IMG/VR virus record: IMGVR_UViG_3300032431_000004
Location: 1 to 64,000 of that record
Origin: a virus
Direction: 5' to 3' (one strand)
Length of the DNA: 64,000 bases
The notes beneath the pieces are model-generated. The model did no database searches. It saw only the letters and a list, made by a program, of their open reading frames with translations, and was not told the DNA's origin. The translations under genes and the position numbers were made by a program. Positions 29,290 to 49,069 of the stretch are shown here, in pieces (position 1 is the stretch's first letter; every line of letters begins with the position of its first letter).

Positions 29290-30117
29290 CTACCGAGATC
29301 CGGTCAAGCTCCACTGGTGCCGTTGTGCGCCAGTTCCCCTGCGCTCTACCTTGCCTTCCCGTTGCAAAACTTTCAGAACCCTGTAGACATAGGTGTGTGA
29401 AAGTTTTACCTCACCTACGATTTTGTCAGACTGGGACTGTCCTGAGCTGAGAGCGTTCAGCACTTTTCGCTTTGCATCTTCTCCTACGTAGCCAGATTCT
29501 CCAATCGTTCTGGACTTCTTGACTGGCGAAGCGCTACTTGCCGATCGCATTCCCTGCGTTGGCTGAGCCACTGCCTGAGCCAGCATGAGCTTGGCCTTCT
29601 CAAGATCAATCTCTGCCAGTCTGACGTCCAGTTCCTTCAGTCTGACCTGATTGTCAACCAATGGCGGCTGAGGACTGGCTGTGGGCATCCACCCGGTCTT
29701 TGAATGAATAAGAGTTCGCAAACCAACCCCGCTGCTCAGTAAGAGCGATCGCTTTGCTTCCTTGGTTTGATCCTTTGGAGCGGCAAAGCAGGCGTAGTAG
29801 CTAATCATCGCTGAGCAGAAAACGTCAGGCAAGATTTCTGACCCATAAGGATCGGAGCTGTTTACTACTGGCAAAGCAATACCAGCAAAGCTTTTTAGGC
29901 ATTCTGGGAGGTCGTTGCTTATCGGGTCAGAAGATCGGATCTTTTGCACCCAGTAGCTAATCGAAGGCTGAGATTTACCTACAAAACGACCTAGGCCACG
30001 ATGGCTCATACCAGAACGACCGCTCAGCCGCTCGGTATAGTATTCAATCCCATCTTCCACAAACTTGATGAAATCGCCGCTCTCAGGTGCATTAAGCAAT
30101 TGGATTTGTGCAGACAT
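29290..30117 (-). CDS. Antirepressor-like protein with C-terminal winged HTH
   Basis: N-domain GIEYYT...SGMSHRGLGRFVG homologous to 45350-46120; C-terminal SQSDKIVGEVKLSHTYVYRVLKVL..EGKVER. Confidence 0.6.
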   Translation of the reverse strand: MSAQIQLLNAPESGDFIKFVEDGIEYYTERLSGRSGMSHRGLGRFVGKSQPSISYWVQKIRSSDPISNDLPECLKSFAGIALPVVNSSDPYGSEILPDVFCSAMISYYACFAAPKDQTKEAKRSLLLSSGVGLRTLIHSKTGWMPTASPQPPLVDNQVRLKELDVRLAEIDLEKAKLMLAQAVAQPTQGMRSASSASPVKKSRTIGESGYVGEDAKRKVLNALSSGQSQSDKIVGEVKLSHTYVYRVLKVLQREGKVERRGTGAQRHQWSLTGSR

Positions 30118-30178
30118 AGCTAAAACTTGGTAAGTGATGCTACTATCATAGCATGAAGTATTTACTTTGAGGTTACTC

Positions 30179-30319
30179 ATGACTACCAAAAAGCACGCGA
30201 TCGCAGCCTATCTAGACGAAAAGGAAGTTGAGTTCTTATGTGCGATCGCATTGGAGTGGGGATGCAGCATGTCTGCCGCCATCAAAAGGCTAATTAGAGA
30301 GAAGGCGAAGGAGGGTTGA
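30179..30319 (+). CDS. CopG/RHH-like small protein (46 aa, not in ORF track)
   Basis: Own translation MTTKKHAIAAYLDEKEVEFLCAIALEWGCSMSAAIKRLIRE; GAGG RBS. Confidence 0.55.
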   Translation: MTTKKHAIAAYLDEKEVEFLCAIALEWGCSMSAAIKRLIREKAKEG

Positions 30320-43000: not shown

Positions 43001-44630
43001 TGAGCTAGCCCTTGAAATAAAAGGCTCGGCAGATAAACAAAAGATTGCTCAACTTGAATTGCAATTAGTTGAGAACGCAGCGGCACAACAAGAGGCTGTT
43101 GAGGCTGAATCCCTGAACCGCATTGCCAAAGCGACCCAGGAAGCTAACCGGCAGATTGAAGCATCGCAGAACGAACGGATTGCAGCCGTCAAGCAAGCTC
43201 AATTAGATGGCGTTGCTACTGAGGAGGAAGCTGCTAGGCAGATTGCTGACATCCAACGCAGCGGCACCGGGGAAAAGGTACAGGCAGTTGAGGATGAACT
43301 AGCAGCCCTAAGGGCGGCGCGGGCGGCGGGTACTGTTGATACTGAAACCGGAGCTGAAAAGGAAGCTGAGTTGATTCAGCAACTAGGCCAGCTCAGCCTA
43401 CAGCGATTAGATGACGAACTGGCTGCCAGAAAGGCTGTGCAGGAAGAGGCGATCGCAGCCATCCAACGGGAACTAGCCGCAAGCGATCGCGCTGCTGGAC
43501 GCAAGATAGCAGGGCTAGAGCGGCAGGTAGCGGCGCAACAGCAGGTAGAGGCATCGTTACAGCGTCAGTCTGATTTACTGTCGTCTCAGGCCAGCCTATC
43601 GCAAGCACTGAGCAATCTAGACCAGGTGCGATCGCAATCCTCAGTTGATAGATTCAGCCGTGCGCTTGAAATCCAGCAACGGCTCAATAGTGGAGAAGTA
43701 GAATCGGCACAGGTACAGCGGGCATTGCAGCAAGAACTATCGGGGCTAGGGGTTAGCCGTGGAGCAAGTGAGCTGAGCATTATTCGCCAGCGTCAAGCTG
43801 AAGAGGATCGGCTTGCTGCAATCCAACGGGTTGCCCTTTCTGCTAGACAGACTCAGGAACGGGCATCACTTGAGCTTGAAACTAGACGCAATCAGCTGGT
43901 ATCGCAACGTGCGGTTGTGGAGTCGCAGATCGCTGAAATTCAGGCACGGCAGAATCAAAATACTGCACAGGCATCGTTAAGGGAAGCACAGGTAACAGGC
44001 AATGCTGACCAGATAGCGGCGGCACAAGCTGATGTCGAATTAGCGCAGCAGTCTACCGACCTAGCAGGTCAATCACGGCTGATTGCTCAAGAGAATGCTA
44101 CAGCACAAGCCGCGATCGCTACCAATGCCAATGCTGCCTTACTCGCTCAACAAGCGGCTGAGTTGGTGCAAACTAGGGCAGCTGAGCAAGCAAGGCAATA
44201 TGCTCAAGCATTGGCAGCGGCAGAGGCAAGTAGCGCAGGTATCGCTAGGAATCTAAGCGGCGGCACACCACAGGCACGGCGCGATGGTGGTGGCGTGAAA
44301 GCTGGCGCTCCTTACTTGGTTGGGGAAGCTGGCCCTGAGCTGATTACCCCTAGGCGTAGCGGATGGGTGTGGACGGCGCAACAAACTGCTGAAATGCTAA
44401 AGGCAAGTGTACCCAAAAGTTTTACAGGCGGGGTAGCGATCGCGCCTGCGTCTAACCCAACATTGCCACTGCTCAAAGAAATTAGAGGGCTGCGAGCTGA
44501 CCTAAAAGCGTTAGATCGCCCACAACAAAACAATAACTTCACATTGGTAAACGAAGAAGACCCGTACGACAAAGTGGTCAAGACCGCCAGTGCATTGCTG
44601 AGGGGGCGGATTCAGAGCTTGGGGTTGTGA
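40017..44630 (+). CDS. Tape measure protein (TP901-type core)
   Basis: 1537 aa, Ala-rich helical; TANSTNTSVRSLGESLSYVG, GSAAGT, LFG.QG; C-terminal RRDGG...YLVGEAGPEL. Confidence 0.92.
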   Translation: MVANTTAVIRLSLNSDAVDRDAKALAESLKRTLGSIKINSKLIDLGNAPDEITRLTASIKQLQSASADPKAAAQLQKEAQILQEQLRYKKELAAIEGAGFGTEDAANARALAAELSKLNLQKIASDFDKLGNAAATAAAKAKAIENSSQNTSALATSLNRSFTAAQQFAGGLGLTAQKANEAIAKLRELDTVGATNAQKFAVLNKELGITQQQFGSLNSAALQTREGLTAVAGGAAAIAAGIAGVFVKGTQEFLAFDNAIRQSGVISGSLGTPQFEALRAEVERLGIATTKTPAQIAEMSISLSRAGFTAEETSVALAGIVQASEATGENLEVVGDIISRTVRTFSKDIGETQDVADLLVQTANSTNTSVRSLGESLSYVGTSAATSNQPLDDTLILLGLLGDVGLTGSAAGTTLAETIERLKIASAGAETEFSGLVRGSAKASQAFNVIGASARNTDGSMKSVLEILPEIKANLAGLSQVDRDVVTKALFGTQGARTVNAFLAATPERIAAVTEEVKNYSGASANASEELRQGLGGAINLFTGSLSAAATEAGQFVAVGLEPVVRAATGLLNTFLGLPAPIQGFILATTALTGAIAAAVAVIATYQLLNIQLLAVQAAETLAMIATTIATKGATAAQLLFNTQISITQARLIATRAALAVGAIAKLAFAAATGGAAGAMGAFAASLAAVAPLLIVIAAGIAGIKFAQYANELREANDAIAQSSTSVESASTEAFAAANRTKAATDKLNEARLSGQSVTQSELDDAKKLTEANDARLKGLQEQLKQVEAISVAGGSDEQKASQDALTQTIKTSIGALEGQNKKLKESIGLREGVTDSIESLSAGYDEQLSELERFNQQRELSATEALAAGNITEEKARADNLIAEQNYLSQRIALNESKLAELEAARGSATDAESLKKAGEEIVKVEATIAGDRLKVAQNSLAERRRLQEEEVKELAIAETEAQTAIATARASGSITDGEANIRRLAATRDRIAGELALEIKGSADKQKIAQLELQLVENAAAQQEAVEAESLNRIAKATQEANRQIEASQNERIAAVKQAQLDGVATEEEAARQIADIQRSGTGEKVQAVEDELAALRAARAAGTVDTETGAEKEAELIQQLGQLSLQRLDDELAARKAVQEEAIAAIQRELAASDRAAGRKIAGLERQVAAQQQVEASLQRQSDLLSSQASLSQALSNLDQVRSQSSVDRFSRALEIQQRLNSGEVESAQVQRALQQELSGLGVSRGASELSIIRQRQAEEDRLAAIQRVALSARQTQERASLELETRRNQLVSQRAVVESQIAEIQARQNQNTAQASLREAQVTGNADQIAAAQADVELAQQSTDLAGQSRLIAQENATAQAAIATNANAALLAQQAAELVQTRAAEQARQYAQALAAAEASSAGIARNLSGGTPQARRDGGGVKAGAPYLVGEAGPELITPRRSGWVWTAQQTAEMLKASVPKSFTGGVAIAPASNPTLPLLKEIRGLRADLKALDRPQQNNNFTLVNEEDPYDKVVKTASALLRGRIQSLGL

Positions 44631-44756: not shown

Positions 44757-45129
44757 GTGTTTTTATAACTAATTGAACCAATCTTCAGTAAAAAACGGGT
44801 GTTCGATGGCCAGGGCTGAATCCTCATTGGTAAAGGGTTTTAGTGTTTTATTGGTCACGATTTTGGCTGTTCATTGGCCACGCACTTCCACCCATTTTGG
44901 TAGGCAAAGAAATGGCCTCTTTTGACTCAACTTGTGGCAGCGCGGCGATCGCAATTAATATCGGCTAAATTGAGGCAACCCCTAGCCCCAAAAGATATGA
45001 AACTTGCGATCGCACGTCAGCTAGCACCGGGCGGCGTTACACAGATTGAGTGGCCTGTCGATATTCAGCCGCAAACCGGGACGGCGATCGCGCTTGATTC
45101 GGTTGAGGTCTGGTAGGGCGATGTTTAAA

Positions 45130-45226
45130 GTAGAAACCCCCTAACTTCACTGCTAGGGGGTTTCTTTGATGAGTTGAGTTGAAGAGAGTGGAGAAGAGCT
45201 GAGTCGGGCTGAGGCGCGTCGTTCCC
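45130..45226 (-). ncRNA. Candidate small RNA A: (CUC-NN)x10 array plus terminator
   Basis: -10 TATATT (45234-45229), GGGAAC start, period-5 array, CAUCAAAGAAACCCCC hairpin with U tract. Confidence 0.65.
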
Positions 45227-45236
45227 TTAATATAGC

Positions 45237-45333
45237 AAAACCCCCAGCCGTTAAGCCAGGGGTTCTTTGATGAGACGAAACGTGATGAGCCGAGAGGAGT
45301 CGAGGAGAGTCGAGCAGAGAGGAGCCGTTCCCC
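45237..45333 (-). ncRNA. Candidate small RNA B: (CUC-NN)x11 array plus terminator
   Basis: -10 TAGGAT (45340-45335), GGGAAC start, period-5 array, CAUCAAAGAACCCC hairpin with UUUU. Confidence 0.65.
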
Positions 45334-45349
45334 TATCCTACCTTAAACA

Positions 45350-46120
45350 TCAGGTCAGATCCATTTCCATCTGCCAGCCATCACCATAGAATTCATTGCA
45401 CAATGCCCTGAAATTATCCTTTGACCCTCTAGACAGCCCCATGAAGGTGTCTAGCCTGACCACGTGGGGAGCAAGCCTATCACGGATCTCTTCTGGTAGG
45501 AATTGGTGAATCTTGTGCCTGCGAATCCCATTCTGAGGAGGGTTTAGCTGGTTGATTTTTGCCTTTTCTTCAGCCGTCATCCAACTGTAGACAAACTTCC
45601 AATAGCCACTGCCGCCAAACCAGCCAAAAAACGGACGGCAAAATTTAGGATCAAAGAAGATCTCCCACGGCGCGGCTTCATCCAAGATGCGATCGATTGA
45701 CCGATGCGATTCTGGGGCTGATATGTACCGCTCTGGTAACCATCCCGTCTGAGTTTGGATGTAGGAGGTCAAGCCAATGTTGACAGTCGCAGGCAGAACG
45801 TCTTGAGCCTTTTCCCTTCCCTCAAACGCATAGTGTTGGATGACTGCCGCGCAAAAGTCTGACGGCCAAGCGCTGATTTTCCCACCATTCTTTGCGAACT
45901 TGGTACGCAGGTCTAAAGCTTTGCCTGTAAACGGTTCTAGAGATCTAGATACCTTTTTGGTACGCAGCGATTCTAGGAGTTTTCGGATGCTCCCTTCACT
46001 AACTCCACAGGCTCTAGCTATACCCCGCTGGCTCATGAAGGAAGCCCCGGTAGCTACAACCGTAAAATACTCAACACCATTGATTTCTGATTTCAAAAAC
46101 TCTAAGCTTGTTACAGCCAT
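45350..46120 (-). CDS. P63C-domain protein (antirepressor-like)
   Basis: PWEIFFDPKF...INQLNPP..GIRRHKIHQFL; N-domain shared with 29290-30117. Confidence 0.75.
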   Translation of the reverse strand: MAVTSLEFLKSEINGVEYFTVVATGASFMSQRGIARACGVSEGSIRKLLESLRTKKVSRSLEPFTGKALDLRTKFAKNGGKISAWPSDFCAAVIQHYAFEGREKAQDVLPATVNIGLTSYIQTQTGWLPERYISAPESHRSIDRILDEAAPWEIFFDPKFCRPFFGWFGGSGYWKFVYSWMTAEEKAKINQLNPPQNGIRRHKIHQFLPEEIRDRLAPHVVRLDTFMGLSRGSKDNFRALCNEFYGDGWQMEMDLT

Positions 46121-46259
46121 CGGTCTACCTCTACTAGATTGTGGTCAGCGATCGCACCAAGGTAACAACTCAGTGCGATCGCGCTTCTCTAATTATATGC
46201 TGAAATCTCCCTCTGGCATTACCGCTAGGGGGATTTCTACTTTAAAGCCAATTACCCTC

Positions 46260-47199: not shown

Positions 47200-47826
47200 A
47201 TGCTGAGTAGTCCTGAAAATATTCAAACGACTGAGGAATGGATCGCTCAACTCTCAGAGGCTACCGGGAAGAGCTTTGAGATAGTGGGAGATATTCTCTT
47301 AAGGACGATGCGGACGTTTTACAAAGAAATTGGAGAAACCTATTTACTAGCTGATCAGCTAGTTGCGGTGATCAGCTCAACCAATACCTCAATCTTAGGA
47401 TTGGGTGAGTCCTTAGCTTTCGTAGGGCCGATTGCTGCCCTTATGAACCAGCCACTAGATGACGTTCTAATCCTGCTAGGTCTGCTGGGAGATGCTGGCA
47501 TTGAGGGGAGTATGGCGGGCATAGGCTTGATGGCTGTCTTAAATCGACTTCAAGTTACGTCGGCAGCGGCAGAACCAGAATCCATTAAGAGAACTTTTGA
47601 TATCGTCAGCGCTTCTGCCAAGAATAGCGACGGATCAATGAGATCCGTTTTAGAAATACTTCCAGAGCTTCGGGGAAGCATTGGCAAGCTATGGCAAGCT
47701 GAGCAAGGCATTTTGATGGAGGCATTGTTTGGGGTAGAAGGCGCACCAGTTTTTCAGGCATTGTTCAATACAACTCCAGAACATGTCGCGATCGTTACCA
47801 GTCGAGTCAAGAGCGCTGGCAGGTAG
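47200..47826 (+). CDS. Stand-alone copy of the tape-measure core domain
   Basis: Collinear with TMP nt ~40989-41574 (EATGKSFEIVGDI vs EATGENLEVVGDI; NSDGSMRSVLEILPE vs NTDGSMKSVLEILPE). Confidence 0.85.
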   Translation: MLSSPENIQTTEEWIAQLSEATGKSFEIVGDILLRTMRTFYKEIGETYLLADQLVAVISSTNTSILGLGESLAFVGPIAALMNQPLDDVLILLGLLGDAGIEGSMAGIGLMAVLNRLQVTSAAAEPESIKRTFDIVSASAKNSDGSMRSVLEILPELRGSIGKLWQAEQGILMEALFGVEGAPVFQALFNTTPEHVAIVTSRVKSAGR

Positions 47827-47893: not shown

Positions 47894-48289
47894 ATGCTGA
47901 GCAGTTCTGGAGAGAATTTAGACGCCGCTGAAATGGTCGTTGCCAGTCAGATCAGGATAGTAGATGAGCTACAGCAAAAAGCGATCGCAGATCCGCTGAA
48001 TATTAATATTGCCACAGCTTTGAGCGCCCATTCTGCTACGCTCTCTTCGCTGTGGAGCATGATTTTTGTTAGGGGGGAGGAACTGGCGATGGAGCTGAGT
48101 AATGAGGGTTATCCCTTGGCAGAAGCCCCGAGACTAAATGGCGAGGTTCTACAATCACGGAGCGATGGCGGTTCAATACCTGCGGACTTCCCTCTCAGGC
48201 TAGGAGAGTCTGGCCCCGAGTTATTCTATCCTTGGGAGCGCTTATCTACTGGTGAAATTGGCATTGTCAAAAATATTTCATGGGGCTAA
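47894..48289 (+). CDS. Small protein carrying the TMP C-terminal motif
   Basis: QSRSDGG...LRLGESGPELFYP vs TMP QARRDGG...YLVGEAGPELITP. Confidence 0.65.
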   Translation: MLSSSGENLDAAEMVVASQIRIVDELQQKAIADPLNINIATALSAHSATLSSLWSMIFVRGEELAMELSNEGYPLAEAPRLNGEVLQSRSDGGSIPADFPLRLGESGPELFYPWERLSTGEIGIVKNISWG

Positions 48290-48529
48290 ACCGATGGGTA
48301 TCGAAAACACAAGCAAGCCGACAGGTGAAAACGATCGCATTTGGAGAGGCCACATCGTTAGCCTAGGCAAGGAATATCAGCGCTGTGAGTCTTCAGGCGC
48401 AAGGGATATTTGGTATTGGCGGTTCGTTTTAGACGTTGCCACTTGGGCACTTGACCAATGCAATAAGCGATTGAGCGCACCGGTACTCAGAACATGGCAT
48501 TATCAAAAAGAATTGAAACGCGATCGCAC

Positions 48530-49069
48530 ATGAAATATTTTCTTGACACCGAATTTATTGAAGACGGCACCACTATTGACTTGATCAGCATTGGTCTGGT
48601 GTGTGAGGACGGGCGGGAATTCTACGCCGAAAACTCTAGCGCCGACCTTTCAAAGGCTGGGGAATGGGTGGAAGCGAATGTGTTGCCGTTGCTTTGGTCT
48701 AGAAGCGCAGACAAGGAAAAAGCAAGCCTGTGGAGCCGTGATGGCGTGGCTGGCGGATTGCTGACCCACAAAGAGATAGGCTCGGCAATTCGGCTGTTCA
48801 TACCGGAAGATGACAAGCCTGAGTTTTGGGCTTATTACGCAGACTATGACTGGGTAGCCTTTTGCCAGCTATTCGGAACAATGATGGATTTGCCAGATGG
48901 ATTTCCTATGTACTGTCGCGATATCAAGCAATGGTGCGACCAGCTTGGCAGCCCTGATCTGCCTAAGCAGGATGGGACAGAACACAATGCTCTTGAGGAT
49001 GCCCAGTGGACATTAGAGGCTTGGGAATTCTTGAACGCAATTGACCTAACCCCTAATGTCACTCCTTAA
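48530..49069 (+). CDS. DEDDh 3'-5' exoribonuclease (Rv2179c-like)
   Basis: FLDTEFIEDG.TIDLISIG, YYADYDWV, HNALEDA. Confidence 0.88.
   Translation: MKYFLDTEFIEDGTTIDLISIGLVCEDGREFYAENSSADLSKAGEWVEANVLPLLWSRSADKEKASLWSRDGVAGGLLTHKEIGSAIRLFIPEDDKPEFWAYYADYDWVAFCQLFGTMMDLPDGFPMYCRDIKQWCDQLGSPDLPKQDGTEHNALEDAQWTLEAWEFLNAIDLTPNVTP

Follow-up and report, generated by a model that had tools for sequence, protein, structure and literature searches.

The stretch of viral DNA described here, which we refer to as the window, comprises 64,000 nucleotides (positions 1 to 64,000) of IMG/VR record IMGVR_UViG_3300032431_000004, a linear record of 74.8 kb with a CheckV completeness of 78%. Between positions 45,130 and 45,340 its minus strand carries two tandem units, here called A and B, in which a triplet, usually CUC, alternates with a variable dinucleotide (NN) at a period of five nucleotides; a gene for a 256-residue protein (45350..46120, minus strand) lies directly upstream of unit B. 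This layout resembles that of the guide RNAs (vrRNAs) of VIPR, a phage system whose protein, Vipr, is a minimal Cas7-like RAMP, and the evidence given below concerns whether and how the two units belong to that system. An earlier reading made from the letters alone (the sequence-only reading) had proposed the two units on the minus strand; the letters are exactly as it transcribed them, and we confirmed the two-unit layout.

Unit B, a candidate solo vrRNA of ~97 nt (45237..45333, minus strand), lies behind a TAGGAT box (45335..45340, minus strand) that is -10-like in sequence and putatively a promoter element. Its GGGG run (45333-45330), read directly from the sequence, is followed in a register-aware parse by AAC and 11 steps of NN and a CUC-type triplet (45329-45272), and then by a tail, AUCAAAGAACCCC...GGGGGUUUU (AUCAAAGAACCCCUGGCUUAACGGCUGGGGGUUUU in full; 45271-45237), consisting of a hairpin and UUUU. 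Unit A, the second candidate solo vrRNA (~93 nt; 45134..45226, minus strand), follows a TATATT box (45229..45234, minus strand) whose offset from the G-run is the same as in the other units, and comprises a GGG run (45226-45224), AAC and 10 NN steps by the same parse (45223-45171), and the tail AUCAAAGAAACCCCC...GGGGGUUU (45170-45134), a hairpin followed by UUU. The linker CUCAUCAAAGAA(A)CCCC is common to both units and is also kept in the six units of a related locus, L189, described below. While the hairpins of the two units differ in sequence, the stem is retained: the predicted fold of unit B has an unstructured repeat tract and then a 13-bp terminal hairpin, and unit A has a hairpin of 14 bp and a fold z-score of -3.4 against shuffles. 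Both units therefore have the conserved structured 3' tail of a vrRNA, together with a period-5 tract of three conserved and two hypervariable positions whose 10–11 repeats per unit fall within the 9–16 expected. The sequence-only reading had called the triplet nearly invariant, which is right as to "nearly": of the 21 triplets five are not CUC, namely CAC and UUC in unit B and CGC, CCC and UUC in unit A, with the third triplet position an invariant C and the 5-nt phase unbroken by indels in either unit.

A TAnnAT box is found 1–3 nt ahead of the G-run in all eight aligned units of the window and L189 (TAGGAT, TATATT, TAGGAT, TATAAT, TATAAT, TAAGAT, TATGAT and TATGAT), and a -10-like box likewise precedes the units of other CUC-type loci. 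A generic sigma-70 scan of the window, which applied strict rules, did not call the unit promoters, because these have no -35 match, and it also left the minus-strand terminators of the units uncalled; we nevertheless accept the -10 boxes because they are conserved before every related unit.

The pattern CTCNNCTCNNCTCNNCTC (four phased CTC triplets), when allowed one mismatch or fewer, matched 13 times in the window, with 12 of these matches inside the two units, as against 0.32 on average and never more than 3 in dinucleotide-preserving shuffles, and a triplet-agnostic period-5 detector found only these two arrays in the entire 74.8-kb record. When the 19 repeats are compared, the triplet positions are informative (1.51, 1.12 and 2.00 bits) and the NN positions hardly so (0.07 and 0.06 bits), and these repeats use 12 of the 16 possible dinucleotides. 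By comparison, the 118 stretches of IMG/VR that contain six phased CTC triplets were nearly all runs of CTCTT, CTCTA or CTCTG, with 1–3 distinct NN each. We rejected a microsatellite origin on the basis of this low NN diversity of CTC microsatellites, as opposed to the high diversity of the window units, and the contrast with slippage that had been drawn from the letters alone was thereby borne out.

Separately, low-diversity (CTCTT/CTCTC)n runs that end in CTC-TA were observed in the IMG/VR loci L013, L029, L045, L080, L087 and others, with iteron-like direct repeats (...GGTTCAAC..., spaced at about 11 nt) directly behind them. The combination of run and iterons recurs in many unrelated viral contigs, is dissimilar to vrRNAs, and may represent an origin or regulatory region.

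In the published descriptions a vrRNA is an RNA of ~100 nt with 9–16 YNNGG repeats and then an invariant structured tail; vrRNAs are encoded in tandem beside vipr and an accessory gene, vap, mostly in phages and prophages, and their NN pair with double-stranded DNA (dsDNA), every third target base being skipped (10.64898/2026.04.26.720920). One Vipr protomer binds per repeat, with each GGY sequestered by two adjacent protomers (10.64898/2026.04.26.720927). The sequence-only reading had pointed, correctly, to a VIPR system with GGY-NN guides (10.64898/2026.04.26.720920, 10.64898/2026.04.26.720927). The published definition of a vrRNA permits a "related consensus" to GGY (10.64898/2026.04.26.720920), and a language-model survey identified 21 period-5 clusters with non-GGY triplets (GAC, CAC, WGT and TGH), each beside a Vipr-like fold (10.64898/2026.10.21.760802); neither CUC/NN nor GAG/NN is named in the text of the VIPR papers or of this survey, a statement that applies to the text and not to the pattern figures. 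Solo vrRNAs, which use Vipr in trans, are found in E. coli phage satellites and in VIPR-null phages of the SUSP1 family, have tails in common with VIPR-positive phages, and are defined operationally by the lack of a Vipr within 20 kb of the array; in the E. coli satellites the use of trans Vipr by redirection or decoy is experimental (10.64898/2026.10.15.759431). The VIPR of SUSP1 is of type II, with vipr (YP_009199429), vap1 and four vrRNAs, and the PDB entry is 36pp; when we read this locus directly it showed units built of a short leader, (GGU-NN)x12-14 and a tail with hairpin and U-run, recurring approximately every 115 nt.

A scan of metagenome contigs with a tail-specific pattern (linker plus hairpin) identified L189, a 2.5-kb locus with three units, a gene for a 243-residue protein (1354-2085) and three more units, on one strand throughout. 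The L189 units have the GGGGAAC leader of the window, a -10 box before each, near-identical tails and 7–14 repeats, and 60 of their 61 triplets are exact CUC, with 15 of the 16 possible NN in use. Window units A and B are 72–80% identical to both L189 arrays, and of 35 positions in the tail of unit B, 31 agree with the tail of the last L189 unit (2328-2400). The NN of L189 differ from those of the window and among the L189 units themselves, and the comparison of homologous loci that had been proposed from the letters alone thus shows conserved triplets with differing NN.

A second scan, of IMG/VR with a pattern of leader plus repeats, identified L194, a viral contig of 82.5 kb in which the cyanobacterial HIP1 palindrome is abundant. 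Its array, of at least five units with the same layout and more degenerate than those of L189, starts where a two-gene operon for proteins of 195 and 165 residues ends, at the stop codon, and L189 has a homologous pair, a 5'-truncated open reading frame (ORF) 56% identical to the 195-residue protein and a 182-residue ORF related to the 165-residue one. As set out below, the first gene of this operon is the counterpart of vipr, and we treat the second as vap-like. Arrays lie directly after a vipr-vap operon in L189, L194/L196, L197, L220, L229 and L235; of these L196, L197, L220, L229 and L235 have vipr, vap and then tandem units of 8–18 repeats, each with its own -10 box, and in L198 a 16-repeat array directly follows vipr. 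The vap-like protein (165–182 residues) is present after vipr in six of the seven CUC-type loci, vap not being matched in L198 by tblastn, and in all seven the array is within ~0.5–2 kb of vipr. Further IMG/VR scans with leader-plus-linker and with hairpin patterns returned chance matches or none, and blastn of the window cassette against 50,697 phage records found no match.

Several searches agreed on the identity of the 195-residue L194 protein. It is 30% identical to SUSP1 Vipr, which also has 195 residues, over 92 residues that include the G-loop; as a single query its sole match was to PDB 36pp, "SUSP1 Vipr protein" (E 0.005), and a profile of 26 sequences matched 36pp at 1.1e-7, with the next match at 0.08. 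Its AlphaFold model (pLDDT 84, pTM 0.79) matched Cas7-family subunits of types VII, III-A and III-B in Foldseek (E 1.4e-8, probability 1.00), and an independent aligner gave Z-scores of 11.1 (rmsd 3.5 over 157 residues) and 10.9, with Csm3, Cmr4 and Cas7 among the matches. Judged by its sequence and its predicted structure, this protein is a Vipr homolog with a Cas7 (RAMP) fold, and it belongs to a large family of 1,856 clusters. The sequence-only reading had suggested that a CUC scaffold would be a different variant of VIPR, and CUC-NN arrays do indeed lie directly downstream of Vipr homologs, on the vipr strand, in seven loci.

We surveyed 80 IMG/VR loci (L196-L275) that encode this Vipr clade at 52–100% identity. 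Period-5 arrays with diverse NN were present in 64 of them, all on the vipr strand, and no array was detected in the other 16; the triplets were GGC in 39, CGC in 12, CTC in six, GAC in four, GTT in two and GTC in one. CUC is one of several scaffold triplets among closely related Viprs, and the constant placement of the arrays on the vipr strand fixes the RNA of the window units as CUC-NN and not GAG-NN. We considered whether the G-loop residues set the triplet and rejected the idea: within the clade (52–65% identity) the motif is mostly G-R-F-R-P-R, and RFRPR occurs with GGC, CGC, CTC and GTT alike. What decides scaffold specificity would therefore lie outside this motif.

No Vipr was found in the 74.8-kb record by tblastn, by profile search or by six-frame hmmsearch (best E = 1), while the same Vipr HMM recovered the positive controls L194 (3e-108), the L189 fragment (1.5e-34) and SUSP1 (1.8e-9). 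SUSP1 Vipr as a single query matched nothing in the window genome, and vap had no tblastn match in the record. That no RAMP-like protein was to be seen in the window had been remarked from the letters alone, and with these working controls the absence of a detectable Vipr extends to the whole record. The two hallmarks of a complete locus, a vipr (its product a minimal RAMP built of RRM core, thumb and G-loop) adjoining the array and a vap beside the vipr, are thus missing here, and a vipr does adjoin the array in L189, L194/L196, L197, L198, L220, L229 and L235. In this record, which is 78% complete, the units have instead what marks published solo vrRNAs: a lack of Vipr in the surrounding 20 kb and on the contig as a whole, and a tail like that of a VIPR-positive relative. 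In addition, L189 and the cassette formed by a promoter region, the 256-residue gene (whose product is KilA-N-like, see below) and the two RNA units are collinear over the distal half of the L189 locus. Based on the lack of vipr and vap together with this collinearity, we regard units A and B as solo vrRNAs of a CUC-type VIPR of a cyanobacterial and cyanophage subclass, acting only with a Vipr provided in trans, and would put the probability of this reading at roughly 0.78.

Some observations weigh against it. The units depart from the canonical GGY triplet, with CUC as the triplet of the RNA strand and GAG opposite it; as non-GGY variants have been reported beside Vipr folds, we file the units as a variant and not as canonical vrRNAs. 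The CUC scaffold is moreover all pyrimidine, and the G-loop motif does not vary with the triplet across the clade. The triplets of the window are more degenerate than those of L189 (five of 21 deviating, versus one of 61), and with the record only 78% complete a vipr at a distance is possible.

On this last point rests the proposal that the phage has a complete VIPR, with vipr-vap in the unsequenced ~22% of its genome and the units serving as ordinary cis-encoded guides. The linear, incomplete record is in keeping with such an arrangement, and in SUSP1 vrRNAs flank protein genes on both sides; however, all seven CUC-type loci keep their arrays ~0.5–2 kb from vipr, the cassette sits mid-contig, with over 10 kb of record on its shorter side, and the homology to L189 starts only past the position of its first array. 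The published definition of solo vrRNAs also requires only that there be no Vipr within 20 kb (10.64898/2026.10.15.759431), and we consider a hidden vipr unlikely.

The degenerate triplets, in turn, would be expected if the cassette were a decaying, non-functional VIPR remnant carried along with the KilA-N-like gene after recombination, and so would the lack of vipr and vap in what looks like a partial copy of a larger locus. Yet both units have kept the -10 box, leader, 10–11 phased repeats, invariant C, linker and stable hairpin intact, no indel disrupts the 5-nt phase, and arrays beside an intact vipr (L194 and L220) are equally degenerate, with the SUSP1 GGY units degenerate too; decay therefore seems to us quite improbable.

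A TRAP-like leader also deserves mention, as Bacillus TRAP binds 11 (G/U)AG repeats with 2-3-nt spacers. The plus strand of the window does read GAG-NN 10–11 times, resembling TRAP-bound repeats, and the hairpins could terminate on either strand, but we rejected a plus-strand TRAP-like (GAG-NN)x11 leader, and hold an origin apart from VIPR (such a leader, or a sponge for a CU-binding protein) to be very improbable indeed, because the plus-strand tract enters the ORF at 45350-46120 in antisense and no regulated gene follows it, every homologous array lies on the vipr strand and reads CTC, it is on the minus strand that -10 boxes and leaders are conserved, and no protein family other than Vipr plus vap co-occurs. 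A CRISPR array, with direct repeats of about 25–40 nt, spacers between them and accompanying cas genes, was likewise rejected, there being just two units of ~105 nt with an internal period of 5 nt. In Rfam there was no match at the gathering score, and the sub-threshold chance matches (rnk and His leaders) were driven by the terminator hairpins.

Under the solo vrRNA reading each unit would probably be transcribed from its own -10 promoter into an RNA of ~95 nt with a short GGGGAAC leader, 10–11 CUC-NN repeats and a conserved tail with a hairpin terminator, and the predicted folds of the units, an unstructured pyrimidine tract and then a strong terminal hairpin, agree with this proposal. Support for discrete transcripts comes from the conserved -10 boxes and the terminators; a look-up of public sequencing runs listed no RNA run with the locus. 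By analogy with the SUSP1 complex, one protomer of Vipr, a Cas7-like RAMP, may bind per repeat; adjacent protomers would sequester each CUC and leave the NN dinucleotides exposed to pair with dsDNA in a gapped register (NN-x-NN-x...). Transcription would then be predicted to be silenced by the bound filament. The sequence-only reading had proposed triplets as a protein-binding scaffold and non-contiguous targeting by the NN, and this finds support in the published mechanism of VIPR, which works in this way. The Vipr itself would come in trans from a VIPR-positive element of the L189 type, either co-resident or co-infecting, and the solo units may redirect it to targets chosen by the phage or titrate it as decoys.

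Searches for targets with skip rules of 0–3 nt and shuffled or reversed controls gave no candidate. In the window's own genome all p-values were ≥0.08, and in 304 kb of cyanobacterial and cyanophage loci a single nominal p = 0.04 in 32 tests came from an L189 guide. In 411 kb of Vipr loci unit A reached p-values of 0.01–0.06 under three skip rules at once, which we attribute to its A-rich composition and do not count as a match. Among 401 sampled cyanobacterial genomes at three mismatches or fewer, unit B had two matches against approximately eight for the reversed control, and unit A had matches similar to its control and none with fewer than two mismatches; an exact nine-unit pattern had zero matches in IMG/VR. 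No skip rule rose above the shuffled or reversed controls in any of these search spaces, which do not include the true host and mobilome. The sequence-only reading had tied its proposal to gapped target matches and to a co-occurring protein family; Vipr is such a family, and no gapped match stood above controls.

The 256-residue protein encoded upstream of unit B had no Pfam family above threshold, with weak matches to HTH_36 (Pfam) and to the abortive-infection protein BstA (PHROGs); it falls into a cyanobacterial family of small size, 26 clusters, its closest homologs being P0001 (95%) and P0002 (71%). Its AlphaFold model (pLDDT 79) has an N-terminal KilA-N/APSES/winged-helix-like domain, for which the best matches were 4ye7 (Z 5.9 over 95 residues), DdrC and Mbp1, and a helical C-terminal half, and it gave no RRM or RAMP match, pointing to a KilA-N/winged-helix-like DNA-binding protein. 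Period-5 arrays were absent from all 39 loci that encode homologs of this protein (≤48% identity). The alternative raised by the sequence-only reading, that this upstream protein (which it called P63C) is the effector, fails on these grounds, a KilA-N/wHTH-like fold with no RRM and 0/39 homolog loci with an array, and we rejected it. As a related observation, a 299-residue ORF at 29290-30189 holds a paralog of the N-terminal domain of this protein (29683-30075, minus strand; 31% identity over 133 residues, tblastn E 5e-13).

The promoter and 5' region of the 256-residue gene (46112..46219, minus strand), with a sigma-70-like promoter called by the promoter scan at 46219-46192 (minus strand; 10/12 match), is homologous to the interval between the first array and the 243-residue gene in L189, the window at 46205-46112 being 88% identical to L189 1268-1362 over 95 nt. 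The 256-residue gene and the 243-residue gene of L189 occupy the same slot, have different N-terminal DNA-binding domains and share only their C-terminal ~80 residues, a likeness so restricted that the gene at this slot appears to have been exchanged; to judge from these alignments, it looks like a swappable cargo position inside VIPR loci, whose product may be a further, vap-like accessory or an unrelated moron. From its sequence, the cassette has been copied in part from an L189-type locus. In a comparison of contigs from four metagenomic DNA runs, copies of the 256-residue gene at 93–96% identity diverged from the window exactly at 45337, the start of the unit B promoter, and these copies (runs X2 and X4) run on past the stop codon into an unrelated hairpin (GCAATCC...GGATTGC); run X7 contains L189-like array sequence. 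As the divergence falls exactly at 45337, the RNA units appear to be a separable module and the junction of gene and vrRNA a point of recombination.

Other features were observed at and beyond the borders of the cassette. Similar hairpins at 46208-46233 (plus strand) and 45128-45165 bracket it in inverted orientation, both ending in GGGGGTTTCTACTTT when read outwards, and the first overlaps the predicted promoter of the 256-residue gene at 46219-46192. A 208-residue ORF (window 47200-47826 and 47894-48289, plus strand) belongs to the tape-measure family (PhageMin_Tail, E 8e-23; PHROG, E 5e-28); as the full tape-measure gene, of 1537 residues, is a separate one that ends at 44630, this match appears to be a stand-alone tape-measure fragment just beyond the VIPR-derived cassette. 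Among the tail genes there is also a 191-residue ORF (48494-49069, plus strand) that matches Rv2179c-like 3'-5' exoribonucleases (Pfam, E 2e-17; PHROG "Rnase H", E 7e-60).

VIPR was described in 2026, and its code has been characterized for GGY scaffolds in enterobacterial and Pseudomonas phages. What is new here is the all-pyrimidine CUC scaffold, which the text of those papers does not name, the cyanophage setting of the arrays, and the evidence of a solo cassette that arose by partial copying of a VIPR locus; as the kind of system is already published, we regard the finding as a well-supported extension and not a new principle. The occurrence of at least six scaffold triplets among closely related Viprs bears on how the RNA is read, the published contacts being to syn-guanines, and on whether mutually orthogonal VIPR tools could be built. 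The solo vrRNA phenomenon, that of protein-less guides in conflicts between mobile elements, would be extended to a different phylum, and the copying of part of a VIPR locus with an embedded gene offers a plausible origin for solo guides. More tentatively, and with real doubt, we speculate that CUC/NN is an orthogonal VIPR specificity class with a purine-free scaffold, that triplets (GGC, CGC, CUC, GAC, GUU and GUC) have switched repeatedly within one clade, and that the window holds a mobile guide cassette, composed of a swappable KilA-N-like gene and solo vrRNAs, which one cyanophage copied from a rival's VIPR locus to hijack or jam its Vipr.

Of the known systems, the Cas7 filaments of Class 1 CRISPR share with VIPR a RAMP subunit for each repeat length of guide and a thumb by which guide-target pairing is broken at regular intervals, the period being 5 nt with two read in VIPR and 6 nt with five read in CRISPR; unlike Class 1 CRISPR, the window has no CRISPR repeats or spacers, Cas6 processing or adaptation genes. 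With the SUSP1 system the window has in common tandem units of ~100 nt, a period-5 tract (10–14 repeats) and a conserved hairpin tail, and the CUC-type relatives, like SUSP1, have arrays adjoining a 195-residue Cas7-like protein and a small accessory gene, their Vipr being by sequence and predicted fold a homolog of SUSP1 Vipr. The differences from SUSP1 are that the triplet is CUC, all pyrimidine, and not GGY; that the tail is a simple hairpin terminator with no pseudoknot evident, though no pseudoknot test was made; that the host of the CUC type is cyanobacterial, SUSP1 being an Escherichia phage; that the CUC-type and SUSP1 Viprs are only ~30% identical, over their C-terminal halves; and that the window itself is without vipr and vap. 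In this last respect it resembles the solo vrRNAs (10.64898/2026.10.15.759431), with units on a contig that has no Vipr, an implied dependence on trans Vipr, and a tail near that of a VIPR-positive relative (31/35 positions against the last L189 unit). It differs from the solo vrRNAs of E. coli in triplet class and host, in being carried by a large tailed-phage contig and not a satellite, and in that its units, as part of an incompletely copied VIPR locus, accompany a KilA-N-like gene. Finally, the window has the period-5 layout, non-GGY triplet and ~10 repeats of the non-canonical arrays (10.64898/2026.10.21.760802), which adjoin a Vipr-like fold, and our survey independently recovered GAC and other triplets within the CUC-type Vipr clade.

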